Assembly: GCA_043736395.1 (NCBI GenBank)
Contig: JAYTCQ010000174.1
Coordinates: forward strand, 4,886 to 68,885
Reading direction: 5' to 3'
Length of the DNA stretch: 64,000 bases
Origin: Blastocatellia bacterium
GTDB taxonomy: Bacteria; Acidobacteriota; Blastocatellia; RBC074
Within the stretch, counting starts at the first letter, position 1; every line of letters starts with the position of its first letter. Shown here piece by piece: positions 4,879 to 63,518 of this stretch. Both the position numbers and the translations under genes were made by a program. Below the pieces are notes generated by a model. It was not told the origin of the DNA. It worked only from the letters and a program-made list of their open reading frames with translations, and did no database searches.

Positions 4879-6131
4879 AGCCCTTCGACCGCCGCGCTGG
4901 CTTCCGCTGGATAACAAAAACGATGAATTTCGTAACGCCCCATGCCGCGTACGACTTCAGAAATATCGGCAATATCACATAGCTCTCGTGAACCCTTTTT
5001 TTCAATGTACAAACGACCTTTGCCTTCGGGACGGTAGATATTGTAATACGGCACATCCGATGCGCGATCTTCGATTAAATAATATGCCGGATCAAAACCT
5101 GCGGCTGAAATTCTCTCGCGGGCTTTGGCCACTAACTCTTTGCGTTCGGCTTCCGGCAAATCCACATCACGCACTTTGAAAAGACGGCGTTCAATAAATC
5201 TGGTAGCGAAATCTTTTAAAATCGGATCAGTTTCACGCGTCCATTGTTTGATATGAAACATGACATCGTGATCGTCAAACCGCAGGTATTCTTCGACCGA
5301 TAATTCCTGCTCGGTCAGCACTCTTTGCATAACGGAACCGGCAAGCAAAAATCCTAATTTTCCTTCGGCGGCTAATTCCACCGCACGCCGCATAATGCAT
5401 TGCAGCACGGCTTCGGCAGAACGCAACGTGCGATGAAAATACACTTGCCGAAACATATAGTATCGCGCTCGCAAATATTCCTCTGCCGCATATAAACCAT
5501 TCGAAGCCAGATACACACGATCATTCGCCAAATCAACTTCTAACGATTGAATGATCCATTCCAAATCGTAGTTGCCATACTGCGCTCCAGTCATCAAAGA
5601 ATCGCGCAGCAGATAATCAAAGCGATCTACATCAAGCTGTGATGAAACAAGCTGACTCACAAATTTTGATTTGTATTTATTTTCGAGCGTAGCGATGACT
5701 TTATCAGGCAGAGACGAATCGTATTCTTTCAATAATTTGTGAACTTGCGTTTCCGGATTGGCGATAATTTTCACTGTCCAGGTTTCGTGATGCTGCTGCA
5801 AAACTTTTTCCATGACATGCGAAAAAGGCCAATGCCCAAGATCATGCAACATCGCAGAAGCGCGAGCGACAACCCGATCTTCTTCACTGATTTCGTATTT
5901 TTCGCGGAAGCGATTCATCACCCGCGTCATCACGTGCATCACGCCCAGGCTATGCGTAAAGCGAGAATGCTCTGCACCTTGATATGTGTAATGCGCTAAC
6001 CCCAATTGACGAATGTAACGCAATCGCTGAAATTCGCGGGTGTCAATTAGCTTAATCAGCAAAGCATCATCTTTGCGATGATCCGATAAAGTAATAATGT
6101 TGTGAACCGGATCACGGTAAATACGTTCCAT
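4863..6131 (-). CDS. HD-domain metal-dependent phosphohydrolase (dGTPase-like family)
   Basis: HD motif pieces: [13 protein letters not shown] and [13 protein letters not shown] (H..HD..H metal ligands). Size ~420 aa is typical of the HD superfamily. Confidence 0.8.
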
Positions 6132-36992: not shown

Positions 36993-39900
36993 TTACTGCG
37001 AATAAAGCTGGCTTCTTGGAATTACCTCCCTCGCTTGATTCGGGCTTGACCATTCAAGTTTGACCGAAGCCGTTTTATCTTTTTCTACAAACTCCAATTT
37101 AATGGTGTATTTTTGCCCACCGTTGAGCGTGACAGCACCGCGACTTTCTGTCAGATCACTTCCGCTTCGGTTGATGATTAGTTGACCATTGATCCAAAGC
37201 CGCACTGTGTCTGCCGTCGTCACATAGAAAGTTTGCGTGCCTGAAAAACGAGGCTGGACAAAACCTGTCCACCTGATGGAAAAGTGGTCTTTGTCTAAGG
37301 CTGCATCGGGTTTTTCTTTGCCCCAATCGAAATCAATGAAGGGGTCAATGCGCGTCAACTTTAATTCTTTGAATTCTTCTTTCTTGAAATATTCTCCCTT
37401 CAATCCAGTTCCCGTTCCATTAACAGGCTTGATAACATTTACTTGAACCGCGCTTGAATTCGTGACCGCGCCGCTATTGTCATAAGCTCTCGCCGTAAAC
37501 GAATAGGCTCCAGCTGATCCCAGACTTACTGTATATTCATAAGGAGCGCTTTGATCCGAATTTATTAATGATCCGCCTTGATAAAATTCAACTTTACTAA
37601 TCGTACCGTCTGAATCCGATGCGTTTGCGCGCAGCGTGACAGCAGTCGGCGCAGTCACCGTTGCATTGTTGGCAGGCGCAGTCAGGGTGACTGTCGGAGG
37701 ACGATTTGCTGCGGTGGTATTTACCTTCACATTATCAATCACTGCCTTACATAGGACTGTGTTATTGGCAGCTGTCACAGCAATTCCAAATAAAACCGAG
37801 GACGGCATGTTTACTGTGACCGTCTCTATTAACAGCCAGTTCGTACCATCAGCCGATTGATACGTACTAAACTGATTGCCTCGTCGCACAATGCGTTGCC
37901 AACGCTGCAAAATTTGCGCATCTCCCAAGCTCGTGATCGTAGCCTCGCCAGGATTGGCGCGTCGTAAGGAGGCTGAATGCTCGTTCGATTTATACCGAAC
38001 CATGACATATCGTGAATTCGCCGCCAGACTCTCTCGAATCATGACACCGGCTTTGGCTTCGACTGCTGTGTTTTGAATGCTGGCAACACGCGCCACAATC
38101 TGCCCATCGCCTTGCAAAGTTTGATAGACATAATTGAAGCTGTCACTCGTCCCGCCAATATCCGTCCCGGAACCTTGCAAAGTGAAACTTCCATTGGAAA
38201 AACTATCAATTCCAACTTTTCCAACACTGCCGACATCCTTTCCTAGCCAGGGTACAGGCAATGTTGTAACGGGTGGCGGAGCGGAACTTTCAGGGATGAC
38301 GTTCACCCGTTTGGTGTCGGTCAATCCGGCACTATCAGTAACGGTCAGTACGATTTCATAAAAGAAGGTCTCACCCACTGAGCCATGATCTTCAACGACA
38401 AAACTGCCGCTGGTTCCGGTTGCCGTAACGCCGGGATGAATATGTTCATTGTGATGCAACAACACTGACCATTTCATGGCACTGGCAGGCAATGTCTCGT
38501 CGGCATCCGAAGCGGTTCCCGTGAACGTTAATTGCGTCCCGGTTTTGATGCGGGCATTGTTGGCGGGTGCGGTGATCGTGGCAACCGGCAGCCGCCCGCC
38601 AACCACTACGTCAATCGTGCTGATACCGGTAAGTCCTTGCGAGTTCGTAACAGTTAACTTCACAGAAAAAGTCTTAACGCCTGTCCCGCTGTAGGTATGT
38701 GTTGGGTTGGCAGTAGTCGAATTGGAACCATCGCCAAAATCCCATAGATAGGTTAAAGCGCTGCCATTGGGATCACTTGACCCAAGACTTGAAAACGCAA
38801 CGGTGTAAGGAGCAGACGGTGAAGGGCGCGAGGCCGTCGCATTCGCCGCTGGAGCTGAACCGCTGAAGCGAATACGTTTGATTTCGCCTGTTGCGATCGA
38901 CAGATAATACAAAGAACCATCTGGTCCTTGCTCGATATGCACAGGCGAATCCACACCTGTCGCAAGCGATTCCACGCTCGTAATATTATTGTTCGCATCA
39001 AACACAGCACGGCGAATGAAGCCTTGTACAAAATCACCAAAGAATAAATTATTGCGAAACTTGGTGGGATATTTTGTGCCCGTATAAAATGGCCCCATCA
39101 CGATGGATGACCCGCCATTCCAGGGATAACTATAGAGCGGCGGCGTCACGGAACTGGCCGGGATTTGGGCGCAACGTTGCGGAAATGCATTTTGGAAAGT
39201 GAATTGAGGATTCGGCCCTTCATAGCATGGCCAGCCAAAATTCGCGCCACGCCCGCGATTGATTTCTTCAAATTTTGCCGCCCCGACATCACCGATGTAG
39301 ACTTCACTGGTTCCGGGTTTGTTCGTGAAACGAAAGGGGCTGCGCAGTCCGTAGGCATAGACTTTCGACCGTACTGAGTTCGGATTGCCATCGTAAAATG
39401 GATTGTCACTCGGCGCAGTGCCATCGGGATTGATCCGCAGAATTTTGCCGTTGTAGTAATTTAAATCCTGAGAACGAAACGATTGTTCTGTCGCCGCGCT
39501 GAACGATGCGCCATCGCCCATTCCCACGTAAATTTTTCCATCCAACCCGAAGCGTACGGTGCCAACCGTATGAGCACCGGAGTCTGATCCCATACAATCA
39601 GAACCAACCGGAGAATTGCTGCAAGGCGGCGTACTGATCTTACCCATTAAAATAACTTCGCTATTCGCCTGTGCAAGATCAGGATTATTAAGATCAGCTT
39701 TCACACGTGTGAGCCGGGCGGTCTTAGCGCCAACACCAGGAGTTGCTCCGTCTTCGAAGGTATACAACAAATAAACAAATCCGTTCGTCGCAAAATTCGG
39801 ATCAAGTGCCAACCCAATCAGACCGCTGTCAACGCCCGAATAAACGCGCGCGCGAATGTCAAGAAAGGGAGTTGTTAACAACACACCATTTTTGACAATG

Positions 39901-40106
39901 CGAACGACTCCTGGCTTTTCCCATAAAAAGATTCTGCCGTCCGGTGCAAATGCAAAGCCGACGGTATTGAAGCGTGTTACCTGAGCAACGGTTTCCGTCG
40001 AAAACCCTGCATCCGTAAACGTCTGGGCGTAAATTCGCTCCCCCATGAAAACAAGCAACATTACCGCCACGCACAATGCAGTGGCTGGGGCTTTTCGTAG
40101 CTTCAT
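36993..40106 (-). CDS. giant secreted protein: N-terminal glucose/sorbosone-dehydrogenase-like beta-propeller, PKD/Ig-like domains, C-terminal PA14 domain
   Basis: Signal peptide. Propeller segments (GFAFAPDGRIFLWEKPGVVRIV, LIGLALDPNFATNGFVYLLYT, GPDGSLYYLS). PKD domain (LTYLWDFGDGSNSTTANPTHTYSGTGVKTFSVKLTVTNSQG). Further Ig-like repeats (VTLTAPANNATV). PA14-like C-terminus (GLKGEYFKKEEFKELKLTRIDPFIDFDWG..FSIRWTGFVQPRFSGTQTFYVTTADTVRLWINGQLII). Confidence 0.7.
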   Translation of the reverse strand: MKLRKAPATALCVAVMLLVFMGERIYAQTFTDAGFSTETVAQVTRFNTVGFAFAPDGRIFLWEKPGVVRIVKNGVLLTTPFLDIRARVYSGVDSGLIGLALDPNFATNGFVYLLYTFEDGATPGVGAKTARLTRVKADLNNPDLAQANSEVILMGKISTPPCSNSPVGSDCMGSDSGAHTVGTVRFGLDGKIYVGMGDGASFSAATEQSFRSQDLNYYNGKILRINPDGTAPSDNPFYDGNPNSVRSKVYAYGLRSPFRFTNKPGTSEVYIGDVGAAKFEEINRGRGANFGWPCYEGPNPQFTFQNAFPQRCAQIPASSVTPPLYSYPWNGGSSIVMGPFYTGTKYPTKFRNNLFFGDFVQGFIRRAVFDANNNITSVESLATGVDSPVHIEQGPDGSLYYLSIATGEIKRIRFSGSAPAANATASRPSPSAPYTVAFSSLGSSDPNGSALTYLWDFGDGSNSTTANPTHTYSGTGVKTFSVKLTVTNSQGLTGISTIDVVVGGRLPVATITAPANNARIKTGTQLTFTGTASDADETLPASAMKWSVLLHHNEHIHPGVTATGTSGSFVVEDHGSVGETFFYEIVLTVTDSAGLTDTKRVNVIPESSAPPPVTTLPVPWLGKDVGSVGKVGIDSFSNGSFTLQGSGTDIGGTSDSFNYVYQTLQGDGQIVARVASIQNTAVEAKAGVMIRESLAANSRYVMVRYKSNEHSASLRRANPGEATITSLGDAQILQRWQRIVRRGNQFSTYQSADGTNWLLIETVTVNMPSSVLFGIAVTAANNTVLCKAVIDNVKVNTTAANRPPTVTLTAPANNATVTAPTAVTLRANASDSDGTISKVEFYQGGSLINSDQSAPYEYTVSLGSAGAYSFTARAYDNSGAVTNSSAVQVNVIKPVNGTGTGLKGEYFKKEEFKELKLTRIDPFIDFDWGKEKPDAALDKDHFSIRWTGFVQPRFSGTQTFYVTTADTVRLWINGQLIINRSGSDLTESRGAVTLNGGQKYTIKLEFVEKDKTASVKLEWSSPNQAREVIPRSQLYSQ

Positions 40107-40237
40107 TTTTTCTCCTGTGTGTGAGTGCAGTATTTGTTGAGCGACCTGCCAGATCGCTTCTATATTTTTTCTAACTAAAATTGAAAGTTAGAATTTGTCA
40201 TCCGCTTCTGCACTTTTCGCGGACAATCAAAAACTTT

Positions 40238-51769: not shown

Positions 51770-52480
51770 ATGAACAGCCATTTTCCCGGCATCAAAAGCT
51801 TACATCTTCTAATGATTGCAAGTGTTTTTTCATTTTTATTAATGCAATCATCGGGAGCGCAATCAATTCCCAAACCAACTGAAAAATCAGCCCAGACGAA
51901 TGTTGTTAATTCAACTCCTGACTATCAAATTCACAAAGGCGATAAACTCAGTATCAAATTTCTTTATCAGCCGGAATTGAGTGATGCGGCAGTTGTCGTG
52001 CGACCAGATGGCAAGATCAGCTTGCCAATGGTAGATGAACTGAAGGTGGAAGGATTAACTGCACAACAAGTGAAGAAGTTACTCGAAAAAGCCTATCGGG
52101 AAATCCTGCTTGATCCTGAAATTAATGTCAGCGTCATAGAATTTGTGCCTCAGCGCTTTTTTGTTGGAGGGCAGGTTTTTAAACCGGGAAGCTATGACAT
52201 GCGCGCCGGACAAACTCTCTTACAAGCTATCATTCTGGCCGGAGGATTTACGCCGGACGCGCATCGAAAATATGTGCTTCACGCCAGACCAGTTGGCAAT
52301 AAAGAACTGAAAGTAACAGCGATTGATGTGACGAAAATCTTAAAAACCGGGGATAACAAAGAAGAAATTTTTCTTCAGGATGGAGACTATATTTTTATCC
52401 CCAACTCAAAACTTTCAAAATTTAATTCAATCGTAACGGCGTTTCGCTCTATCATGCCGGGGTATGCCATTCAGTTTTAA
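51770..52480 (+). CDS. polysaccharide export protein (Wza/GumB/EpsA-like, Poly_export + SLBB)
   Basis: Signal peptide. Poly_export-type N-terminal domain (YQIHKGDKLSIKFLYQPELSDAAVVVRPDGKISLPMVDELKVEGLTAQQV). Second SLBB-like domain (ILKTGDNKEEIFLQDGDYIFIPN). Confidence 0.75.
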   Translation: MNSHFPGIKSLHLLMIASVFSFLLMQSSGAQSIPKPTEKSAQTNVVNSTPDYQIHKGDKLSIKFLYQPELSDAAVVVRPDGKISLPMVDELKVEGLTAQQVKKLLEKAYREILLDPEINVSVIEFVPQRFFVGGQVFKPGSYDMRAGQTLLQAIILAGGFTPDAHRKYVLHARPVGNKELKVTAIDVTKILKTGDNKEEIFLQDGDYIFIPNSKLSKFNSIVTAFRSIMPGYAIQF

Positions 52481-52485
52481 TTGTT

Positions 52486-55242
52486 CTACATCGCCTCAAT
52501 CATAGCTGCCAGTTTTGTCAATTGCTCTTCAATTTCAGCCGTACGAGCGCGAGATTCTGTCACAACTTCGACAGCGGCGCGGGCTACGAAATCAGCATTT
52601 GACAAGCGTTTTTGCAGGCTTTCAAGTTCTTTGCTAAGTTTCGTGGCGCTGGCTTCCAATCGCGCTTTTTCTTTTTCGAAATCTATTAAACCTTCCAGCG
52701 GAACAGCGATTTCAATGCCGCTCAAAACATCGCGGACAGAACCTTTTTGGGTAGTGATAGATTCTACCAATTCAAGATTTTCAAGTCGTGCCAATCTGAC
52801 GATTTGATCTGTCATCGCAGTAATCACAGCTTTGCTGCCTTCGTCTGAAGTTGCCAGTTGCGCATTAATTTTTACTGACGGGGAAATATTAAAAGTAGCG
52901 CGAATGTTACGGAGTTTCGATACGACTCCAGTGAATAATTCCATCTCGCGTTCAGCTTGCTCATCGCGTGCACCAGCTTGTGGAAAAGCCTTCAGGCAAA
53001 TTGTTTCTCCCCGATGCGGCAGACGTTGCCACAGCTCTTCGGTGATGAATGGCATCAGTGGATGCAATAAGCACAGGCTGCGTTCGAGGATGTAAATGAT
53101 GCGGCGTTTCACCGCAGTATTTTCATCAGAAATTTCCGTCGAAGTCACAAACGGCTTTGATAATTCAATGTACCAATCACAAAAATCATTCCAGAAAAAT
53201 TGGTACAATGTTGCGGCTGCTTCGTGAAAACGATACTCCGCGAGCGCTGAATTCACTTCACTGGTGGCGTATTGCAAACGGCTTAAAATCCAACGATCAG
53301 CGAGAGTCGGATTCGATAATTTCGTTTCCCATTCGAGCGGTTCCTGCGCTTCTAAAATCTCATCGCAATTCATCAAGACAAACCGCGTCGCATTCCAAAT
53401 TTTATTGGCAAAATTTCGCGAAGATTCGAGCTTAGAATCTTGCAGCGCCAGCGTCAATCCAGCTGTCGAAGCTGCCGTCAAAGCAAAGCGCGCCGCGTCT
53501 GTTCCATACTGAGCAAACACATCCAGCGGATCAATCACATTGCCCTTCGTCTTGGACATTTTCTGTCCCTGCGGATCAAGCACAATTGCGTTGATATAAA
53601 CCGTGCTGAACGGGACTTCGCCCATAAATTTCAAGCCCATCATCATCATTCGCGCGACCCAGAAAAAGATGATGTCTTGCGCCGTGACTAAAACTTGCGT
53701 GGGATAGAATTTTTTTAAATCTTCAGTTTGCTCAGGCCAACCGAGCGTTGAGAAAGGCCACAGTGCCGATGAAAACCAAGTATCAAGAACATCTTCATCT
53801 GGAGTCAAAATCGTGTTCGAATCTTTTCCTTGTTGTGCTAACCGTTCACGCGCTTCGCCTTCGTTACGAGCAACAATAATTTCACCTTCAGGAGTATACC
53901 AAGCCGGAATGCGATGCCCCCACCAGAGTTGCCGCGAGATGCACCAGTCCTGAATATTTTCGAGCCAGCCACAATAAATTTTCGAAACTCCTTCAGGAAT
54001 AATTTTCGTACGCCCATCTACAACAGCTTGCAGCGCGGGTTCGGCGAGCGGCTGCATTTTCATAAACCATTGCGTAGAAATTAATGGTTCGACAACTTGC
54101 CCGCTACGTTGGCAGTGTCCGACGTTGTGCGTGTAATCCTCAGTCTTGAGCAATAATCCAGCCGTTTCCAAATCAGCAACAACGGCTTTGCGCGCAGCGT
54201 AGCGATCTAGTCCGCGATATTTTTCTGGCGCAGCATCTGTGATTTTTGCTTCTTTGCTGATGACCTGAATGAATTCGAGATGATGGCGTTTGCCCATCGC
54301 AAAATCGTTTGGATCGTGCGCAGGAGTAACTTTAACCAAGCCTGTACCGAAATCTTTTTCGACGAGATTATCTTGAATAAAGTTTATTTGGCGTCCGACC
54401 AAGGGCAGCACAGCTTTTTGGTTTTTCAATTCGGCGTAGCGTTCATCATCAGGATTGAACGCCACTGCCGTATCACCAAGCATCGTTTCAGGACGCGTTG
54501 TTGCGACTACAATAAATGTTCCCTGCGCAGTTTTGAGCAATCCTGATTTCGCTTCACCTTCATTAAGTGCGGCGTAGGCTTCGGCTAAGCCTTCGTAAGT
54601 TTCATTACCACTCGCAGAACCCACCGGATAAGCGATGTGCCAGATGTTGCCTTTGACTGGTTTCATCTCGGTTTCGAGATCGGAAATCGCAGTCTGCAAT
54701 CCAGGTGACCAGTTGACCATGTATTCGCCGCGATAGATCAAACCTTCATCATACAACCGCACAAAAACTTCGAGCACAGCTTTGGATAAGCCTTCGTCCA
54801 TCGTGAAGCGTTCGCGTGACCAGTCTACGGAATCACCCACAATACGCATTTGTTTTTGAATCGTACCGCCGGAGTGCGCTTTCCATTCCCAAACTTTTTC
54901 GAGGAATCTTTCGCGGCCTAAATCGCGGCGGTCAACGCCTTCTGCGGCGAGCTGCCGCGTCACTACCATTTGCGTCGCGATGCCGGCGTGATCAGTTCCT
55001 GGAAGCCACAAAACTCTGTCGCCGTTCATTCTGCGCCAACGCGCTAACACGTCCTGCAATGTATGATTAAGGGCGTGTCCCATGTGCAAATATCCCGTGA
55101 CGTTCGGCGGCGGAATCACCATCGTAAAAACAGGCGCATCAGGATTCGTTTGTTTTTCAGGAGCAAAATAATTGTTCTGTTCCCATTCGGGATACCAGCG
55201 GGCTTCGACTTCTTTAGGTTCGTATTGTTTCGGAATTTCCAT
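52486..55242 (-). CDS. valS: valine--tRNA ligase
   Basis: Class I aaRS HIGH motif ([21 protein letters not shown]) and KMSKS motif (KMSKTKGN). Editing domain. 918 aa with a C-terminal coiled coil typical of ValRS. The N-terminus [17 protein letters not shown] is ValRS-like. Confidence 0.95.
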
Positions 55243-55340
55243 ATTTTTGAGCGATCAGCAATGAGCGATTAGCATTTAGCTTTCTAACGAGTAAAAATGA
55301 ATTGCCAATCATCTGGAATCTTGCGAGGTTCGTCAACAGC

Positions 55341-55380
55341 AAAAAATAACGCCGGCAACTTTTTCAAGCGCCGACGTTAT
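55341..55380 (-). terminator. rho-independent terminator downstream of the response-regulator gene (minus strand)
   Basis: On the minus strand: ataacgtcggcgc-ttgaaaaagtt-gccggcgttat stem (10/11 bp) followed by ttttttgctg. Confidence 0.55.
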
Positions 55381-55404
55381 GCGGGGGTCAGTAAATCAAT
55401 AAAT

Positions 55405-56646
55405 TTAATGAGCAAGCTGTTTTTGTTGCGCGATTTGTTTGCGAATTAAAAGCTCGGCCATTTCGGGAACGACTTCCCAGGCAACATCCTGAATCGCCTT
55501 TGCAGAAAGCTTTTGGATCACCCGATTGACGATGTCTTCGACTAAAGATTCAGGTATCTGCATTGCGCTTTCATTAAAACTGACCGGCGTTGAAGCCATC
55601 GGCATTTCTAAAGGCGCTGACTCTGACTCAGGAATGGTTTCTGAAATCGTTTCCAGAACTGGTTCTGAAACTGTTTCAATTGGCGTCGTCATGGGCATGA
55701 GTGTTCCCAGACCAACATCCATACTCAGATTCATATCCTGAATCGCGGAAGTGTCCATTAAAGTTGTTCCTTCTGGAACAATAACTTCCGGCTCAGAATG
55801 CATTGTTGATAATAATAAATCATCTGAACCACTTGTTGGCACCGGAGAACTCATCGAAGCCAGTGCTGGAGCCGGCTGGATTGATGGCATTGTCAAAGGA
55901 GTATACTCAGATAAATCCAGCACATCCTCTTCAGCCAAAGTCTCTGGCGTGGCGGCCATCATCGAAGCGACCGTGGTGGGCAAAGTTGTCAGTGGCGGAC
56001 TCCAGGGAGCTGAACTTACTTCGGGTAAATCCAGAGTACGTAACAAATCAGCTCCTGAAAAGTCACCCGACACTGATAACGCAGAAGGCAGCTCTGGTTC
56101 CATCGCGTATGACATCGCAGGAACCGGAGGAGCTACTAAGCCCGCATTCATTTCTGCCATCTCTGCCATAGAAGATGAGGGCTGTCCCGCTGATTCAGTT
56201 GGAACTGTCGATTCTGAGTTGACAGATTCATTTATTTGCGATGACGCAGACGATGACGCATCGGCTGGAATTTGTGGTCGCGCCAGAAGTTCCTGAACAG
56301 TTGTCACGAGGGTTCGAATAGATTGAAATGGTTTGGTCAGCTGATGATCAGCACATACTTTTTTAGCACGCTCCGGATCGAATGGCTCGAAAGCATGCAC
56401 CAGCAAGATCACTGGGATATTTTTGAATTGAGGGTGAGCCTTAACATATTCACAAACCTCATAGCCATCCTTACCCGGCATGAAAACATCTGCCATGATC
56501 AAATCAGGTTTAATTGCTTCGATTTGTTGAACTGCTTGTTCGCCATTTCCAAACGCAATTACTTCAATACCTTCTTCAGTCAAACTCAATTTGACGATTT
56601 TTTGAACTGTAATACTGTCATCAGCCAGCAGGACTTTGTATCCCAT
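55405..56646 (-). CDS. CheY-like receiver domain protein with long Ser/Pro/Met-rich low-complexity linker and small C-terminal helical domain
   Basis: Receiver: MGYKVLLADDSITVQ..PDLIMADVFMPGKDGYEVCEYVK..LTKPF (Asp pocket, phosphoacceptor D in IMADVFMP, conserved K). ~250 aa of low-complexity sequence follow. C-terminal QIPESLVEDIVNRVIQKLSAKAIQDVAWEVVPEMAELLIRKQIAQ. Confidence 0.7.
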   Translation of the reverse strand: MGYKVLLADDSITVQKIVKLSLTEEGIEVIAFGNGEQAVQQIEAIKPDLIMADVFMPGKDGYEVCEYVKAHPQFKNIPVILLVHAFEPFDPERAKKVCADHQLTKPFQSIRTLVTTVQELLARPQIPADASSSASSQINESVNSESTVPTESAGQPSSSMAEMAEMNAGLVAPPVPAMSYAMEPELPSALSVSGDFSGADLLRTLDLPEVSSAPWSPPLTTLPTTVASMMAATPETLAEEDVLDLSEYTPLTMPSIQPAPALASMSSPVPTSGSDDLLLSTMHSEPEVIVPEGTTLMDTSAIQDMNLSMDVGLGTLMPMTTPIETVSEPVLETISETIPESESAPLEMPMASTPVSFNESAMQIPESLVEDIVNRVIQKLSAKAIQDVAWEVVPEMAELLIRKQIAQQKQLAH

Positions 56647-57462
56647 AGATTCTTCCTCACGGAAATGTGCTTTTAGTCAACACAATTATTTTGCAGTTAT
56701 CAAGACTTCTCAGCACTCACGCATGTCTTAGCGCAATGAAATTCATTGCATCTTTTAAATTATAGTTAAGGGTTGTTTTAATACTTTGATCGGAACCTAT
56801 CACTTGAAAGTAGAACTCAAGGGGCGGCGGGCAACTGAAAAGTACCATTAACCTGATGAAGAGACAATAAAAAAATAGAATAATAGTTTTTTCATAAATG
56901 CTTGCTCTACTTTTATTAAAGAAATTCTTCAGCTCTCAAGGCAATAAATTTGAAAAAATCCGCCAAATTTATTTAATTCTAATAAACTGTAAAAATTTTG
57001 GATAATTTTAAAGTTGACGCAGTGCTAAAATGTGATCTATTATTATTTTGATAACTAATAGTCATCCTCACATATCCGGCAACACCCATGATGACTTTTA
57101 TCAAGTAAGTGTCCAGGTCAGTTTTTGTCCTGTCCAGCATCCCCAATTCCTTTTCAGCGTGCCCAGTAACGAATAGCATCTGTTTTATATTACACTCGCG
57201 CCTAACAATTTGGTTTTCCGTTTCAATATTGAATCTAAGTGACCAATCAAGATGTCGTTAGATCATCTGAATTGAGAATTTGCCTTTATTAGCAATTTCT
57301 ATTTTCCATCACTGGGTTTAGCAGCTCTCCAAGTTGCTGAATAGTTGCCTTTACTTTAATAATTTCTGAGCGACGGTTAGGAGTCAAAGCTTTACAGTTT
57401 TGATTTAAGCTCCTAATTTTCGAGTGCTCCGCTCGAGGGTTACGAACCAAAACACACACATC

Positions 57463-57487
57463 CTCAGGTAATTCCTGAGAGAGGGGA
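57463..57487 (+). promoter_or_regulatory. conserved leader hairpin abutting the RBS of tandem paralogue 1
   Basis: ctcagg-taatt-cctgag (6-bp stem, 5-nt loop) followed directly by agagggga (SD-like). The 29-nt block catcctcaggtaaYtcctgagagagggga is repeated almost exactly upstream of paralogue 2 at 58787-58815. Confidence 0.4.
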
Positions 57488-57493
57488 ATGAAC

Positions 57494-58582
57494 ATGCACA
57501 CCTCACACAAATTCACACACATTCTTTTGACACTATTCGTGCTCATCGTAAGCGTTACCGCATCGATGGCACAGGCTACCCCAAGTATTCCCAGCGATAT
57601 GAAACAAGGCTCAATGCTGTTTTACAACGCTTACACTTCAACTGTTGGTGATGCTGCGCAAAATACGCGGATCAATATCACGAATACGAATCCTACTAAA
57701 TCCGTTAACGTCCATTTTTTCTTTGTCCGAAGTAGTGATTGCACTATTGCAGATACTTATGTCTGCTTGACGGCTAGTCAGACTTTTTCCTTCCTGGCTT
57801 CGGAATATGATCCTGGCGAGTCCGGCTTCATCTTTGCCGTTGCGACCGATGATGCTGGCTGCCCTATTAATTTTAATTATTTGATAGGTGACTTGTATGC
57901 AAAGAGCTTCTTTGGAACATCCACTTATTTTCAGGCCAATTTAGGTGCCGTCGCCTTTGCCGCACAAAATATTTGGGATGGAGCAAATTATGTCGCCTGG
58001 GCTCCTGGAACACGAGCATTGCTTTTCAATAACGACATGCTTTGCGCTATTGCTTTTGGTCTCTACCACGACCTGACGAATCCAACCATTTGTCACGCCT
58101 TATACGATAAAGTTCCTTCCCAAATGGCAGTTGACAACATCCAGAGCGAAGCTGATGGAAATAATACTTTGCTGATCTTGCACTCAATGCAGGGTAAACC
58201 TGAACAGGCTGGTGCTATTGGCATTATTCTGGGACAAGTCTTCGATGATAATGAAAAGGGATACAGCTTCCAGACAACTTCGGTAGGCTGCTTCTGGGCC
58301 AGACTTATTAACAGATCATTTATTCGTATTCCACTGGGAATTGACAAAGTCATCTCTAAAGGTCGCACCGGATGGATGTATTTCCAATCACCTAATGGCG
58401 GCACCACTGGCGTCCCTGACCTGGGCTTACTTGGAGCCACAATTGTCAGTAACAACAGACCTGATGGCTTCAATGGTGGTCATAACCTTCACATGACACG
58501 ATTTAAAGATAATCGTGGTTTCGCTATCCCGGTCTTCCCGAGCGGTGTAGCGTGTGCTGGTATCGCTCCTGTTGGAGACTAA
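57494..58582 (+). CDS. secreted hypothetical protein, tandem paralogue 1 (shares a ~300-aa uncharacterised domain with the FG-GAP protein C-terminus)
   Basis: Start placed at the second ATG (MHTSHKFTH, spacing to the SD ~6 nt; the ORF track starts at 57488). Signal peptide ..ILLTLFVLIVSVTASMAQA. About 70% identical to 58825..59922. Shared motifs with the FG-GAP protein: SDxKxGSxL, TRxxITN, CLT, SFxASxYDP, AVAxDxxGxPI, NxGAxAF, KGxxGxxxF, AIPVF. Confidence 0.8.
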   Translation: MHTSHKFTHILLTLFVLIVSVTASMAQATPSIPSDMKQGSMLFYNAYTSTVGDAAQNTRINITNTNPTKSVNVHFFFVRSSDCTIADTYVCLTASQTFSFLASEYDPGESGFIFAVATDDAGCPINFNYLIGDLYAKSFFGTSTYFQANLGAVAFAAQNIWDGANYVAWAPGTRALLFNNDMLCAIAFGLYHDLTNPTICHALYDKVPSQMAVDNIQSEADGNNTLLILHSMQGKPEQAGAIGIILGQVFDDNEKGYSFQTTSVGCFWARLINRSFIRIPLGIDKVISKGRTGWMYFQSPNGGTTGVPDLGLLGATIVSNNRPDGFNGGHNLHMTRFKDNRGFAIPVFPSGVACAGIAPVGD

Positions 58583-58618: not shown

Positions 58619-58659
58619 AACCGGAAGCAGAGATTCTCTGTTTCCGGTTTTTTATTTTT
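58619..58659 (+). terminator. rho-independent terminator after paralogue 1
   Basis: aaccggaagcagag-att-ctctgtttccggtt (14-bp stem, one mismatch) followed by ttttttattttt. Confidence 0.7.
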
Positions 58660-58790
58660 CTCCCATCTTTTCTGAAATCCCTCCTCAATTAGCAGTCTCT
58701 ATAGTCCGTCACTGGAGTCTAAGAATGAACCGACCCGAAAGCTCAGGTCTGGGTTGTCTCAAAGGCTTACCATTAAGACCAAATTACATC

Positions 58791-58815
58791 CTCAGGTAAC
58801 TCCTGAGAGAGGGGA
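58791..58815 (+). promoter_or_regulatory. conserved leader hairpin abutting the RBS of tandem paralogue 2
   Basis: ctcagg-taact-cctgag then agagggga. It is identical to the element at 57463-57487 except for one loop base. ATG at 58825. Confidence 0.4.
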
Positions 58816-58824
58816 TTTTTCACC

Positions 58825-59922
58825 ATGACCTCACACAAATTCACACACATTTTCTTAACGCTGTTGGCCCTAATTATTTGCGCGACAGCTTCGATGGCAC
58901 AAGGACCTATAGAACCTGGAGTCGCCAGTGACCAGAAACAGGGATCACTTTTGTTCTATAATACCTATACCTCAACAATTGGTGACGCTTCGCAAAACAC
59001 GCGAATCAACATCACGAATACTCATCACACATCTTCGGTTAACGTTCATCTATTCTTTGTCCGAAGCATTGATTGCACCATTGCAGACACTTATGTCTGT
59101 CTGACAGCAAATCAAACCTTTTCCTTCCTGGCTTCTGAGTATGATCCCGGCGAAACGGGTTTCATCTTCGGAGTCGCCACAGATGACAATGGCTCACCAA
59201 TCAACTTCAATTATTTGATTGGCGATTTATATGTGAAGAGCTACTTCGGAACGCCTAACTATTTCCAAGCCAATTTAGGCGCAGAAGCTTTTGCCGCTCA
59301 AAACAAATGGACTGGTACGGCGTATGCAAAATGGAACGAATACACTGCGGCTCCGCTCTTCGGAAATGACATGCTGTGCGCTATCGCATTTGGCCTTTAT
59401 CACGATACCAGCAGCCCCGCAGCGGAATTGACCCCACACGCTTTATACGACCGTGTGCCTGTCACTTTGGCCGTTGATAACATTCAAAGCGAAGCCGATG
59501 GTAATGCTACCTTGTTGATCCTGCACTCAATGCAAGGTAGAACTGACCGAGCTGGTGTTATTGGCAGTATTGCTGGTCAGGTCTTTGATGATGTGGAAAG
59601 AGGATACAGCTTCCAATCTTCAAATCTCAGTTGCTATTCAGCAAGATTGATCAATCGGGCTTCTGTTCGTGTCCCAACGGGAATTGACAAAGTTATTTCA
59701 AAAGGAAAAACCGGATGGATGTACTTCACTTCCCCAACCAACGGACAAGGATTATCTGAACTTGGATTGCTCGGCGCCAGCATTGTCAGCAATGGCAGAA
59801 ATGATGCAGCAGCATTCAACGGTGGACATAATCTTCATCAGATTCGTGTCAAAGACAATCGCGGTTTCGCTATCCCAGTCTTTCCGAGTGGCGTGGCTTG
59901 CGCTCCTTCGATGACTTGGTAA
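58825..59922 (+). CDS. secreted hypothetical protein, tandem paralogue 2
   Basis: MTSHKFTHIFLTLLALIICATASMAQG signal peptide. Collinear with paralogue 1 along its whole length (e.g. VNVHLFFVRSIDCTIADTYVCLTANQTFSFLASEYDPGETGFIFGVATDDNGSPINFNYLIGDLY). Confidence 0.8.
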   Translation: MTSHKFTHIFLTLLALIICATASMAQGPIEPGVASDQKQGSLLFYNTYTSTIGDASQNTRINITNTHHTSSVNVHLFFVRSIDCTIADTYVCLTANQTFSFLASEYDPGETGFIFGVATDDNGSPINFNYLIGDLYVKSYFGTPNYFQANLGAEAFAAQNKWTGTAYAKWNEYTAAPLFGNDMLCAIAFGLYHDTSSPAAELTPHALYDRVPVTLAVDNIQSEADGNATLLILHSMQGRTDRAGVIGSIAGQVFDDVERGYSFQSSNLSCYSARLINRASVRVPTGIDKVISKGKTGWMYFTSPTNGQGLSELGLLGASIVSNGRNDAAAFNGGHNLHQIRVKDNRGFAIPVFPSGVACAPSMTW

Positions 59923-59950
59923 GTTAAAAAGTCCTTTGGATAAAACTAAA

Positions 59951-59990
59951 GACCAGAAGTTGTTAAATCAACTTCTGGTCTTTTTCTTTT
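59951..59990 (+). terminator. rho-independent terminator after paralogue 2
   Basis: gaccagaagttg-ttaaat-caacttctggtc (perfect 12-bp stem) followed by tttttctttt. Confidence 0.75.
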
Positions 59991-60063
59991 CTGAACTCGA
60001 CTTTATCAGCCGATTCGGTAGAATGAGCATCTATTTTCAAACTGATTTTTGGAGGGACTCACG

Positions 60064-62520
60064 ATGCAGGATTTTGAAATTCTTGGACAATTCTATCTCG
60101 GCAAAAAATACGATTTAAAAAAACAGGCTTCTTCAGACGACCTGATTCTTTATGATTCAAAAGACATGGTCACGCATGCCGTTTGCGTAGGCATGACAGG
60201 CAGTGGCAAAACAGGTCTTTGTCTCAGCCTGCTCGAAGAAGCGGCGATGGATTCCGTTCCGGTAATTGCGATTGATCCTAAAGGTGATCTGGCAAATTTG
60301 CTGTTAACTTTTCCTGATCTTGCACCTGGCGATTTTGAGCCGTGGATCAACGAAGATGATGCCCGTCGCAAAGGCGTCAGCCCTTCAGAATTTGCCACTC
60401 AACAATCGGAGCTTTGGAAAAATGGGCTGGCGAAATGGGGACAGGATGGCGAGCGAATTCGTAAGCTGAGAGAAACTGCTGAATTTGCGATTTATACGCC
60501 AGGCAGCAGTGCCGGGATTCAGCTTTCGATTATGAAATCGTTCACTGTGCCACCTCCGGAAATCATGGAAGACGGCGAATTGCTACGTGAACGCATCAGC
60601 ACTACAGTCACGAGCCTACTCGGTTTGCTCGGTATCGAAGCCGATCCCATTCGCAGCCGTGAACATATTCTGCTTTCAACGATCATTAATACCTGCTGGC
60701 AAAATGGTAAAGACCTTGATCTCGCAGCACTGATTCAGCAAATTCAGCAACCGCCATTCAATAAAATTGGCGTGATGGATATTGAATCTTTTTATCCAGG
60801 CAAAGAACGTTTTGAGCTGGCGATGTCCATTAACAATTTATTGGCTTCGCCTGGCTTCAGTTCGTGGATGGAAGGCGAACCTCTTGACATCAATAACCTC
60901 CTTTACACATCAACTGGTAAACCGAAAATTTCGATTATCTCCATCGCTCATCTGAACGACGCCGAACGAATGTTTATGGTGTCTTTGCTACTCAATCAGG
61001 TCTTGGGTTGGATGCGACAACAATCAGGAACTACCAGTTTACGTGCGATGCTGTACATGGATGAAATCTTCGGATACTTCCCGCCTGTTGCTAATCCACC
61101 TTCAAAACAACCATTGCTGACCTTGCTGAAACAGGCGCGCGCTTTTGGTTTGGGAATTATGCTCGCCACGCAAAACCCGGTAGATTTGGATTATAAAGGC
61201 TTGGGCAATACAGGAACCTGGTTCATTGGACGGCTGCAAACGGAACGTGATAAGGCGCGTGTTTTGGAAGGTCTCGAAGGCGCATCGGCCAGCGCCGGAA
61301 TGGAGTTTGATCGCGGTGCGATGGAAGAAATCCTGGCCGGCTTGGGCAATCGAATTTTCCTGATGAATAACGTTCACAACGACGCGCCTGTGGTTTTCGA
61401 GACGCGCTGGGCGATGTCGTATTTACGTGGCCCACTCACCCGCAATCAAATCAAACAGCTCACCGATCCGATCAGAGATCAATTGCAAGGCGTGCCGATG
61501 GTTGCGGCTAAAGCGGCGCCAACTTCTGGAACGAAAAAAGCCGCGACTTCCAGTGCAAGTACAGGTGCGCGTCCATTGTTAGCTTCGGATGTCACACAAT
61601 ATTTTTTACCTGTCAGATCAAATGCGCCGGATGAAGGTTGTACGTTAGTTTATTCGCCGATGGTGATTGGCGCGACTGATATTCATTTCGTAGATTCAAA
61701 AACAGAAATAGATCATTCGCAAGTCGCTGTTTTTCTTGCTTCAATTACTGACAACACTATTCCGGTTGACTGGTCGGATGCGAATGAAATCAGTATTGAT
61801 CCAAATGATTTAGAAACAGAACCAAACGATGCCGGACAATTTGCCGAAGTCCCTTCAGTTGCGGGCAAAGGGAAAAGCTTTGAAAAATGGGGCAAAGACT
61901 TAACTGATTTTATTTATCGCAATCGCACCATTGATTTGTTATACAGCGAATATCACGAAGTTTTTTCCACGCCTGACGAGTCTGAACGCGATTTCCGGGT
62001 ACGATTAAATCAACTCGTACGCGAAACCCGGGACGGCGAAGTCGAAAATCTCAGACAAAAGTATGCAACGAAAATTGCGGCTTTAGAGGAGCGCATGCGC
62101 CGCGCTCAAATGGCTGTTGAGAAAGAAGCACAAGAAGCGCAATCTGCAAAAATGCAGGGATTTCTTTCCATCGGAGCTTCTTTGCTCGGCGCATTCATGG
62201 GCAACAAAATGGTTAGCTCAACAAATATTCGCCGTGGAGCTAGTGCCATCAGCAGCATGTCCCGAGCTTCTAAACAATCAGGAGATGTTGGAAGAGCTGA
62301 AGAAACTGTCGAAGCAATTGGCGCCCAAATTCAGGAATTAGAAGCGCAGTTCCAAGCCGAAACCGACGCCTTGAAATCGCAAAGCGACCCAACGACCGAG
62401 CGCCTCGAGACGATTTCCGCTAAACCCAAAAAGAAAGACATTGCCTTAAAAGTTGTCGCTTTAGCCTGGGATCCTCAGTGGCAAGACGAACGCGGCGACC
62501 TAACTCCTGCCTGGGAATAA
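60064..62520 (+). CDS. HerA/FtsK-like P-loop NTPase (DUF853/YjgR-like) with ~300-aa C-terminal coiled-coil extension
   Basis: Start at the ATG 7 nt after the GGAGGGA RBS; the ORF track starts at an upstream TTG. Walker A GMTGSGKTG. Walker B-like LYMDEIFGYFPP. AIDPKGDL and the rest are collinear with HerA-like DUF853 ATPases (~500 aa). The C-terminal part is a long charged coiled coil (RLNQLVRETRDGEVENLRQKYATKIAALEERMRRAQMAVEKEAQEAQ..). Confidence 0.55.
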   Translation: MQDFEILGQFYLGKKYDLKKQASSDDLILYDSKDMVTHAVCVGMTGSGKTGLCLSLLEEAAMDSVPVIAIDPKGDLANLLLTFPDLAPGDFEPWINEDDARRKGVSPSEFATQQSELWKNGLAKWGQDGERIRKLRETAEFAIYTPGSSAGIQLSIMKSFTVPPPEIMEDGELLRERISTTVTSLLGLLGIEADPIRSREHILLSTIINTCWQNGKDLDLAALIQQIQQPPFNKIGVMDIESFYPGKERFELAMSINNLLASPGFSSWMEGEPLDINNLLYTSTGKPKISIISIAHLNDAERMFMVSLLLNQVLGWMRQQSGTTSLRAMLYMDEIFGYFPPVANPPSKQPLLTLLKQARAFGLGIMLATQNPVDLDYKGLGNTGTWFIGRLQTERDKARVLEGLEGASASAGMEFDRGAMEEILAGLGNRIFLMNNVHNDAPVVFETRWAMSYLRGPLTRNQIKQLTDPIRDQLQGVPMVAAKAAPTSGTKKAATSSASTGARPLLASDVTQYFLPVRSNAPDEGCTLVYSPMVIGATDIHFVDSKTEIDHSQVAVFLASITDNTIPVDWSDANEISIDPNDLETEPNDAGQFAEVPSVAGKGKSFEKWGKDLTDFIYRNRTIDLLYSEYHEVFSTPDESERDFRVRLNQLVRETRDGEVENLRQKYATKIAALEERMRRAQMAVEKEAQEAQSAKMQGFLSIGASLLGAFMGNKMVSSTNIRRGASAISSMSRASKQSGDVGRAEETVEAIGAQIQELEAQFQAETDALKSQSDPTTERLETISAKPKKKDIALKVVALAWDPQWQDERGDLTPAWE

Positions 62521-62696
62521 TTATTACTGAGCAAGCGCGGCGCTATGTTATAGTTACTGCGCTTGCTTGGTCTGTTTGAGCAAGTTTACGATTACAATTT
62601 CCTACCGCGCTATTTTTTAATTCCATCATGACAATGCCTCGTCTAACCTTCGTCACTTGTGAAATCCACAAGCGATATTTTCCGGAAAGGAATAAA

Positions 62697-63518
62697 ATGC
62701 GTTTTTTGATGATTCCATGTTTTATTTTGCTGACTGTGATTTCCTTTACAGGTTGCGTAACAAACACCACTGAAGGCGCAGTTCAGGTTCAAGTTGTGCG
62801 CGGACAAATTAATCGAATCATCAAACCTTCAGATGGTTGGGTTGGAACATTAACTACTGTTGGCGATCAATATTACGACATTGATTTACGTTCGTTTACT
62901 GAAAATGTTGACGTTGGAGCAAGTACCAAAGATAACGCCGCACTCAAAATTAGCATTGCCGTGACAGCTCATGTCATTTCTGAAGATGACAGCATCAAAG
63001 CCTATGTGCGTAAATTCGGGTTGGAGCAAAAAGAGCGTCACGACCGAAGAAATGCGATTTTAATGGGACACGTGAACACCGAAACAAAAAATGCAGTGGC
63101 AGGTTTTGATGCATACAGCTTATTAGCGAATCAGGAAGCCATCCAAAAAAGTATCACGAATTCACTAAGCTCTATCTTCAAACAACAATTATTACTCGAA
63201 TTGGAATCAGTACAAATTATTGGACGACCGGATTTTGTGGATGATCGCATTGAGCTGGCTGCCAGTTCTGTCGTCGCCAATCAAAAGGCTAAAGAAGCTG
63301 CCGAAGCTGATTTGGCTCGCGCGAAGGTCGAGGCAGAAAAGAAACAAGTTGAAGCACTAACTTTCAATAATCCAGCTTTATTACAAATCAAATTACTGGA
63401 AATGCGCCTGGACATCGAACGCGCCAGAGCCGAGGGCATTGCCAGACATCAAGGGCCGCTGACCATTGTCAATGGTGCGACCGATACTCAAATTCAATTG
63501 CGAGCCAGCGAAAAATGA
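62697..63518 (+). CDS. SPFH (band-7/stomatin/prohibitin-like) domain lipoprotein
   Basis: Start placed at MRFLMIPCFILLTVISFTGC (signal peptide plus lipobox FTGC, RBS aagga upstream). SPFH hallmarks: VQVVRGQ..R and the TKDN motif (ASTKDNAALKISIAVTAHV). C-terminal coiled coil (AEADLARAKVEAEKKQVEAL). Confidence 0.55.
   Translation: MRFLMIPCFILLTVISFTGCVTNTTEGAVQVQVVRGQINRIIKPSDGWVGTLTTVGDQYYDIDLRSFTENVDVGASTKDNAALKISIAVTAHVISEDDSIKAYVRKFGLEQKERHDRRNAILMGHVNTETKNAVAGFDAYSLLANQEAIQKSITNSLSSIFKQQLLLELESVQIIGRPDFVDDRIELAASSVVANQKAKEAAEADLARAKVEAEKKQVEALTFNNPALLQIKLLEMRLDIERARAEGIARHQGPLTIVNGATDTQIQLRASEK

Follow-up and report, generated by a model that had tools for sequence, protein, structure and literature searches.

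A conserved hairpin-containing start-site module shared by tandem secreted-protein genes and their orthologues in Blastocatellia

Why should two tandem genes with diverged coding sequences carry almost the same letters just ahead of their start codons? The question is raised by a Blastocatellia bacterium (assembly GCA_043736395.1, contig JAYTCQ010000174.1), of which 64,000 nt, positions 4,886 to 68,885 of the forward strand, were analysed; this whole stretch is called the window, and coordinates below refer to it. The genes are paralogue 1 (coding sequence 57494..58582, plus strand) and paralogue 2 (58825..59922, plus strand), both encoding proteins with an N-terminal signal peptide. An initial annotation, made from the sequence alone, had described a near-identical 29-nt leader before both, with a hairpin fused to the Shine-Dalgarno (SD) sequence. 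We find that this repeat belongs to a module of ~90 nt, in which the hairpin, here called P1, precedes a purine-rich SD and which runs into the first 8-9 codons. We class the module as a clade-specific cis-acting element of the 5' untranslated region (UTR) and start site, of a known general kind, in a secreted-protein gene family of soil Acidobacteria.

The repeat is as reported, and slightly longer. The window contains exactly two copies of a 30-nt block, ACATCCTCAGGTAA[T/C]TCCTGAGAGAGGGGA (57458-57487 and 58786-58815), with 29 of 30 bases the same; its 29-nt core, CATCCTCAGGTAA[T/C]TCCTGAGAGAGGGGA, lies at 57459-57487 and 58787-58815, the first coordinate originally given being off by one, and the A preceding the core is also common to both copies. 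Allowing up to three mismatches brings up no further match to the core in the 64 kb, nor did any of 100 shuffles yield one. The palindrome CTCAGG-N5-CCTGAG has two sites in the window, both of them positions of P1 (copy 1, 57463..57479, CUCAGG, loop UAAUU, CCUGAG; copy 2, 58791..58807, CUCAGG, loop UAACU, CCUGAG; both plus strand). Identity between the paralogues is 73.5% for the proteins and 70% for the coding DNA, for which the initial annotation had given a divergence of ~30%. The duplication is old, because four-fold degenerate sites are only 41% identical between the two genes. Around the start codon 10-13 nt differ, after which the paralogues are identical at 24 of 24 positions (ACCTCACACAAATTCACACACATT, 57500-57523 vs 58828-58851). 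At a neutral identity of 41%, the probability that at least 54 of 55 bases would be identical is ~4e-20; chance preservation of the repeat and early-coding blocks is excluded. The surrounding intergenic DNA had been called otherwise unrelated, which is not quite true of the region upstream, where a weak local alignment of the two copies spans ~200 nt.

The repeat is not a peculiarity of this tandem pair. We fetched a comparison set of 22 non-identical genes of the Blastocatellia subfamily, with protein identity down to ~42%: syntenic loci that hold both paralogues (L001 and L002, proteins ~85% identical to those of the window), single-copy orthologues at 52-57% identity (L003-L012, L020, L022, L025) and distant members at 42-47% (L014, L027, L028). 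Two loci were contributed by a metagenome scan. All the sequences were assembled from metagenomes and belong to related organisms, which leaves few independent compensatory events. The initial annotation had staked the function of the motif on its recurrence before orthologues, and it does recur: the stem-loop and purine tract stand at the same distance from the ATG before all 22 genes. The P1 stem has 6-9 bp, with up to two extra pairs. Its four basal pairs (CUCA/UGAG) are invariant; pair 5 is G-C in 8 genes, A-U in 12 and G·U in 2, pair 6 is G-C in 21 and G·U in 1, and pair 7 appears as G·U (6), G-C (4), A-U (4) or C-G (2). The loop, of 3-8 nt, is not conserved in sequence. P1 is predicted in every member folded. 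A model-based alignment has 99.3% of its P1 cells paired. At two of the pairs both partners have changed, and the observed covariation score was reached by 0 of 500 shuffles. P1 thus shows compensatory and wobble changes on one strand, the signature of a conserved structured RNA hairpin, and its stem is under selection at the RNA level. (An alternative register, in which a 5' arm CCCUC pairs with GAGGG, was rejected; the bases before CUCA vary, being AU, AC or UU in L010, L011, L014, L027 and L028.)

This variation also bears on the second possibility raised originally, a palindromic operator in DNA. A dimeric factor might bind such a site, and the window offers a perfect 6-bp inverted repeat and, as in L001, a response-regulator gene upstream. 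Equally, the element might have no function, its identity reflecting gene conversion between tandem copies only, as the identical 5' ends of the tandem paralogues in one distant locus (L031) could suggest. However, the invariant half-sites CTCA and TGAG lie 9-14 nt apart, across loops that vary in both length and sequence; G·U pairs are present in six of the 22 stems, and these would read as A·C mismatches on the opposite strand or under duplex symmetry; and the site is ~410 nt downstream of a conserved promoter (see below). The element is as well conserved in genomes without a neighbouring regulator as in those with one, and in single-copy genomes, where conversion is impossible. Either explanation is hardly credible. 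Because of the G·U pairs, the variable loops and the 9-14 nt between invariant half-sites, what selection has kept in P1 is a hairpin of the sense-strand RNA, not a DNA palindrome for a protein to bind.

In the sequences covered, the module is confined to this gene family. A covariance model built for it, R1, matches only before family genes in 208 kb (22 matches at 47-93 bits), with two matches in the window. The search for further copies, by patterns in the window and by R1 over the 208 kb, thus yields none away from family genes. Over the window and the 22 loci, P1 does not behave as a dispersed palindrome resembling repetitive extragenic palindromic sequences or miniature inverted-repeat transposable elements. 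Nor is it an intrinsic terminator, since P1 is followed by AGAGGGGAA and not by a U run. Searches of Rfam 15 gave nothing at gathering score for the whole window, only chance-level matches (E >= 0.8) for 56900-57560, and nothing at E <= 0.1 for seven orthologous loci. The module belongs to no curated RNA family.

What surrounds P1 is as constrained as the hairpin. On its 5' side lies a G-poor, ACA-rich single-stranded tract (...AACCAAAACACACACAUC, 57439..57462, plus strand); across the 22 genes, the 24 nt before P1 contain on average 2.5 ACA motifs, vs a background of 0.31, and 1.2 G. On its 3' side is the invariant purine tract GAGAGAGGGGAA (57477..57488, plus strand), which holds the SD (GAGG at 57481-57484, or AGGGG); UGAGAGAGGGGAA is invariant in 19 of 22 genes, and the corresponding purine tract and SD of copy 2 read GAGAGAGGGGA (58805..58815, plus strand). 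The start codon of copy 1 is probably ATG 57494 (MHTSHKFTH), not 57488, because of the alignment with copy 2 and the orthologues. Beyond it comes a conserved early-coding tract, ACCUCACACAAAUUCACACACAUU (57500..57523, plus strand; 58828-58851 in copy 2), with CCUC at 57501-57504 and two YUCACA boxes (Y, pyrimidine) at a period of 10 nt. A second G-free tract, CCUCACACAAACUCACACA, spans codons 3-9, and the 27 nt after the AUG average 4.2 ACA motifs vs ~0.3 expected and ~1 G. The codons themselves are frozen (ACC 20/20, TCA 20/20, CAC 18/20, AAA 20/20, ACA 21/21), with almost no synonymous variation over codons 3-8; at 131 other conserved-residue columns the mean codon entropy is 1.33 bit, and none falls to 0.3 bit or below. 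The conserved stretch runs from about -60 to +27, roughly the contact area of the 30S subunit. Folding predicts the tracts flanking P1 to be unpaired, and their composition is that of a standby site or CA/ACA enhancer. The suggestion that the leader is a functional RNA element survives as regards selection and the level, RNA beside the ribosome-binding site, at which it applies; what does not survive is the picture of a free-standing 29-nt leader.

The reading that we favour, with confidence slightly short of even, is that of a cis-acting module for translation initiation and mRNA stability in which P1 is a clamp and insulator. The order of parts (G-poor ACA/CA single strand, P1, purine tract with SD, AUG, G-free codons 3-9) would let P1 serve as a fixed clamp that keeps the ribosome-binding site apart from a multi-hairpin leader and spares the SD alternative pairings. 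The CA/ACA flanks may serve for ribosome standby or as enhancers, loading 30S subunits, and P1 together with a strongly bound SD could hinder 5'-to-3' nuclease attack on the mRNA. We infer that the outcome would be high and robust expression of the secreted beta-sandwich protein.

The arrangement has parallels among features studied by experiment. CA-repeat single-stranded tails beside a ribosome-binding-site stem-loop strongly raise translation via standby (PMC5934652), and in the MS2 coat standby model (Sterk, Romilly and Wagner 2018, PMC5934652), as here, a G-free, CA-rich strand of ~16-24 nt adjoins such a stem-loop; unlike here, the MS2 SD and AUG are inside the hairpin (in our module the SD is just 3' of P1 and at most weakly paired), and the present tracts carry a specific conserved YUCACA, not mere repeats. 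ACA motifs near the SD enhance translation, to the point that replacing the four ACAs of dppA lowers expression more than 100-fold, and such enhancer motifs are also small-RNA targets (PMC3879156). The C/A enhancers targeted by GcvB (dppA, yifK; Yang et al. 2014, PMC3879156) resemble our module in their ACA clusters around SD and start codon, and in a conservation at the level of sequence that suggests reading by the ribosome and possibly by a regulator; they differ in belonging to Enterobacteria and not Blastocatellia, and in that the motifs here flank a conserved hairpin and reach codons 3-9. Leader stabilisers are built of secondary structure plus a strong SD (PMC3997798). The ompA-type 5' UTR and the Gram-positive stabilisers (STAB-SD, polypurine; PMC3997798; katG, PMC2358910) share with our leader a hairpin near the 5' end (H1, below), a second hairpin (here P1) directly upstream of a strong purine-rich SD, and an exported product.

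Several observations weigh against this favoured account. The four basal base pairs of P1 never vary, and half of the stem therefore gives no covariation evidence. The predicted cost of opening the mRNA between the SD and +13 is 5.5-11 kcal/mol at 37 C, a surprising figure if the site served maximal initiation and nothing else. The predicted promoter at about -450 means that P1 would not be 5'-terminal, and a classical stabiliser role would need processing. Finally, lack of structure alone predicts that ACC, ACA and ACU, or UCA, UCC and UCU, should alternate, and they do not; because synonymous codons do not alternate, a sequence-specific reader is implied.

An unlikely alternative is that the module is an operator for a trans-acting factor: an RNA-binding protein, or a small RNA whose seed is rich in G/U, would bind the invariant single-stranded YUCACA boxes and the purine tract, with P1 merely presenting the sites, and translation would be switched on or off as by GcvB on C/A-rich enhancers. 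YUCACA stands at four conserved places (the loop of the 5' hairpin H1, about -50, +9 and +19), of which the last two form the direct repeat CTCACAC-AAA-CTCACAC; there are 101 matches vs 8 expected, a figure inflated by shared ancestry and overlapping pattern matches. The invariance of the sequence exceeds what structure or amino acids demand, ACCTCA is kept at codons 3-4 in 11 distant genes that lack P1 and have the SD AAGGAGA, and GcvB silencing of ACA/CA-rich enhancers (PMC3879156) offers a precedent. However, no antisense or small-RNA partner was found in the window, where sequences of the TGTGTGAG type occur only as the complement of the module and at one unrelated site. The unconserved loops of P1 exclude a protein that reads the loop, and being mostly without GGA they do not show the GGA-in-loop pattern of a CsrA/RsmA site. 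(Elsewhere in the window, on the minus strand, a secreted-protein gene with open reading frame (ORF) 36993-40106 carries ACTCACACACAGGAGAAAAA immediately before its ATG, at 40107-40130; a YUCACA/CA tract beside the SD may be a wider start-site feature in the source organism.)

Both single-sequence and alignment folding predict a second helix, P2, in which GAGG of the SD pairs over 4 bp with CCUC of codons 3-4, placing the AUG in a loop of 15-18 nt. Most members show P2 in their minimum-free-energy fold, as does the alignment consensus, and the SD has a predicted probability of ~0-0.2 of being unpaired. The start might then be self-inhibiting, a thermosensor or attenuator with P2 stacked on P1, translated once the weak helix melts or is opened. 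We consider this quite doubtful. The predicted opening cost does fall from ~9-14 kcal/mol at 20 C to 4-8 at 50 C, though any structure weakens on heating and the trend is unspecific. In the most divergent member, L028, the SD region and early codons have both changed, and pairing of AGAG with CUCU is still predicted; CCUC is invariant in 21 of 22 genes, which speaks for P2, yet with both strands of a 4-bp helix invariant P2 has no covariation support. The distant relatives L018, L019, L029 and L031 lack P1, and their SD, AAGGAGA, can pair through GGAGA with only 3 bp of the ACCUCA that they keep at codons 3-4; because of them, P2 is not the whole explanation of the frozen codons, and codons 5-9 are frozen with no help from P2. 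RNA thermometers of the ROSE and fourU types likewise place the SD in a short helix near the AUG. They are unlike the present case in that the helix that covaries here, P1, excludes the SD, and the predicted one that holds it, P2, has 4 bp closing a loop of ~16 nt and is invariant.

How far does the element extend upstream? A sigma-70-type promoter is predicted for copy 1 at 57014..57043, plus strand (TTGACG, 18-nt spacer, TATTAT; consensus score 10/12). The pattern TTGAC(T/G)-N18-TA(G/A/T)(A/T)AT is found in 18 of 18 non-redundant copy-1-type loci, 435-474 nt upstream of the ATG, with a diverged spacer, and the similarity between the window, L001 and L002 starts exactly at the promoter, despite a different upstream neighbour in L002. 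Transcription of copy 1 would start just after the -10 element, giving a conserved non-coding 5' leader of ~444 nt (57050..57493, plus strand). The leader region, which was also examined in L001-L012, L014, L020, L022, L027 and L028, measures 429-468 nt in the 18 loci at a G+C content of 40-63%, and no conserved upstream ORF or leader peptide was found in it. It is three to four times longer than the ompA leader, which has 133 nt. (Most promoters among L003-L028 have a G+C-rich discriminator, gcgcgccg, after the -10 element; it is not present in the window, L001 or L002. Discriminators of this kind are typical of stringently controlled promoters.)

Within the leader, conserved blocks keep fixed positions. 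Hairpin H1 (AGUCAUC/GAUGACU, 57060..57096, plus strand) begins ~10 nt from the predicted start, and its loop holds the invariant sequence CCUCAC(A)AUCCGGCAA, the first YUCACA box; all 13 of the 13 AT-rich leaders can form the stem, with variation only to G·U. A block TCACTGGG (57309..57316, plus strand) recurs in all 18 leaders at +252 to +283 from the predicted start, with a similar GTCACTGGAG in copy 2; conserved blocks of the leader include AGTCATCCTCAC.ATCCGGCAA, GTGCCC, TCACTGG and the TCGAG box. A covarying hairpin, H5 (57376..57417, plus strand), is predicted for 14 leaders, in each at the corresponding position but with differing stems (CUCACC/GGUGAG, CCAUC/GAUGG, GGCAUCG/CGAUGCC, UGCCCAAU/AUUGGGUA). 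It is followed by H6, a "TCGAG box" hairpin, UCGAGUG-CUC-CGCUCGA (57418..57438, plus strand), whose seventh pair is G-C or A-U depending on the leader; H6 is kept in copy-1-type genes, L003-L011, L020 and L022 and missing from copy 2 and L012. The leader of ~450 nt looks like an undescribed structured leader, absent from Rfam.

The module could be the expression platform of a riboswitch-like leader, a ligand or protein sensor of ~450 nt in which P1 switches with the upstream part. The conserved length, promoter and blocks, the at least four hairpins (H1, H5, H6, P1) and the lack of an upstream ORF would suit such a sensor. However, most of the leader is missing from copy 2, which retains P1, the SD and the early codons all the same; the arms of P1, being adjacent, should form the hairpin under any condition; and Rfam has no matching family. 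Nor was a consistent long-range partner of the start-site region found: sites of pairing between leader and start site predicted by RNAduplex differ between genomes and were rejected. We judge a sensor of this kind improbable. When a consensus structure of the whole leader was computed with RNAalifold from a MAFFT alignment, P1 and P2 were the only helices to emerge, and no conserved terminator was seen inside the leader, terminator-like sites near -140 being present in some lineages only.

The leader also sets the position of P1, which in copy-1-type genes is ~410 nt from the predicted 5' end and so not at the 5' terminus, where a 5'-terminal stabiliser would be; no conserved -10/-35 pair of a second promoter was seen right before P1. 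The distance rests on the predicted start, and processing of the leader or a separate start for copy 2 could change it. In this respect P1 would match the ompA-type stabilisers only if the leader were processed.

A more ambitious combination is that the module and the ~450-nt leader are parts of one undescribed class of regulatory mRNA leader in Blastocatellia. A putative factor on the four YUCACA boxes (H1 loop, just 5' of P1, codons 3-4 and codons 6-8) would bridge the 5' end and the start site and gate synthesis of the clade-specific secreted beta-sandwich proteins, the frozen first codons being part of its operator. We hold this to be doubtful. The favoured clamp-and-insulator reading and its rivals are not fully mutually exclusive.

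Copy 2 separates the module from the leader. Paralogue 1 is followed by an intrinsic terminator (58619..58659, plus strand; 14-bp stem, then a T run), kept in L001 and L002 with compensatory changes in the stem, and paralogue 2 by another strong one (59948-59993). Because strong intrinsic terminators follow each paralogue, copy 2 probably needs its own promoter. The sole candidate seen is a conserved TATAGT at ~58711-58716, which has no -35 partner. Copy 2 keeps the module almost perfectly and has faint similarity to only the last ~200 nt of the leader; because the module persists with most of the leader decayed, it is selected on its own, a natural experiment that speaks for the clamp-and-insulator reading. 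The full leader plus module of copy 1 is the ancestral arrangement, of which copy 2 kept the last part only.

The proteins served by the module match nothing in Pfam, NCBIfam or the PDB sequences. Their homologues come from Blastocatellia and other Acidobacteriota, as metagenome-assembled sequences. An AlphaFold model (alignment of 95 sequences) is all-beta with a predicted local distance difference test score (pLDDT) of 92.6; structure comparison with this predicted model found no solved structure related to the whole protein, and one domain that resembles the small beta-sandwich protein TM1070. The N-terminus M(R/Q)TS(R/H)KLTH is kept in ~100 homologues (among P0001-P0120) that are only ~40% identical overall, and codons 3-4 are ACC TCA in every family gene with DNA in hand, including the distant hairpin-less members; none of the explanations tried fully accounts for the latter. 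One of these distant loci, L031, has four tandem paralogues (5001, 6523, 8085, 9643) whose first 36 nt are identical (ATGAAAACCTCACTTCGCTACACTCACGCGCTGATG) and whose upstream regions differ, another lineage in which the coding 5' end has been homogenised or frozen. A further copy of the family domain, at ~28% identity (2054-2917), forms the C-terminal part of a large ORF (65-2923) that runs off the start of the window. The FG-GAP gene named in the initial annotation is cut by the window start, and the contigs with its neighbour stop short of its 5' end.

Gene neighbourhoods were compared over 51770-56646 and 60064-63518 of the window. The usual setting (L004, L014, L020, L022, L027, L028) has divergent Wzy_C and Poly_export genes upstream, and downstream a conserved gene for a 396-residue protein of unknown function, RuvX and MltG. 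The window and L001 differ: there the gene is preceded by a response regulator and valyl-tRNA synthetase and followed by a HerA-like ATPase and an SPFH protein. A Poly_export gene does lie nearby in the window (51770-52480). The ORF of the HerA-like ATPase is listed from TTG 60049, and ATG 60064, after GGAGGG, is the likelier start (60049-60066).

Acidobacteria are among the most abundant and least cultivated soil phyla, and to our knowledge almost nothing is known of post-transcriptional control in them. The locus is a compact and strongly conserved object of study, and the module is a candidate entry for RNA family databases. It marks an unannotated family of secreted proteins as probably highly or tightly expressed. 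Should the conserved boxes turn out to bind a factor, the locus would lead to a new regulator.

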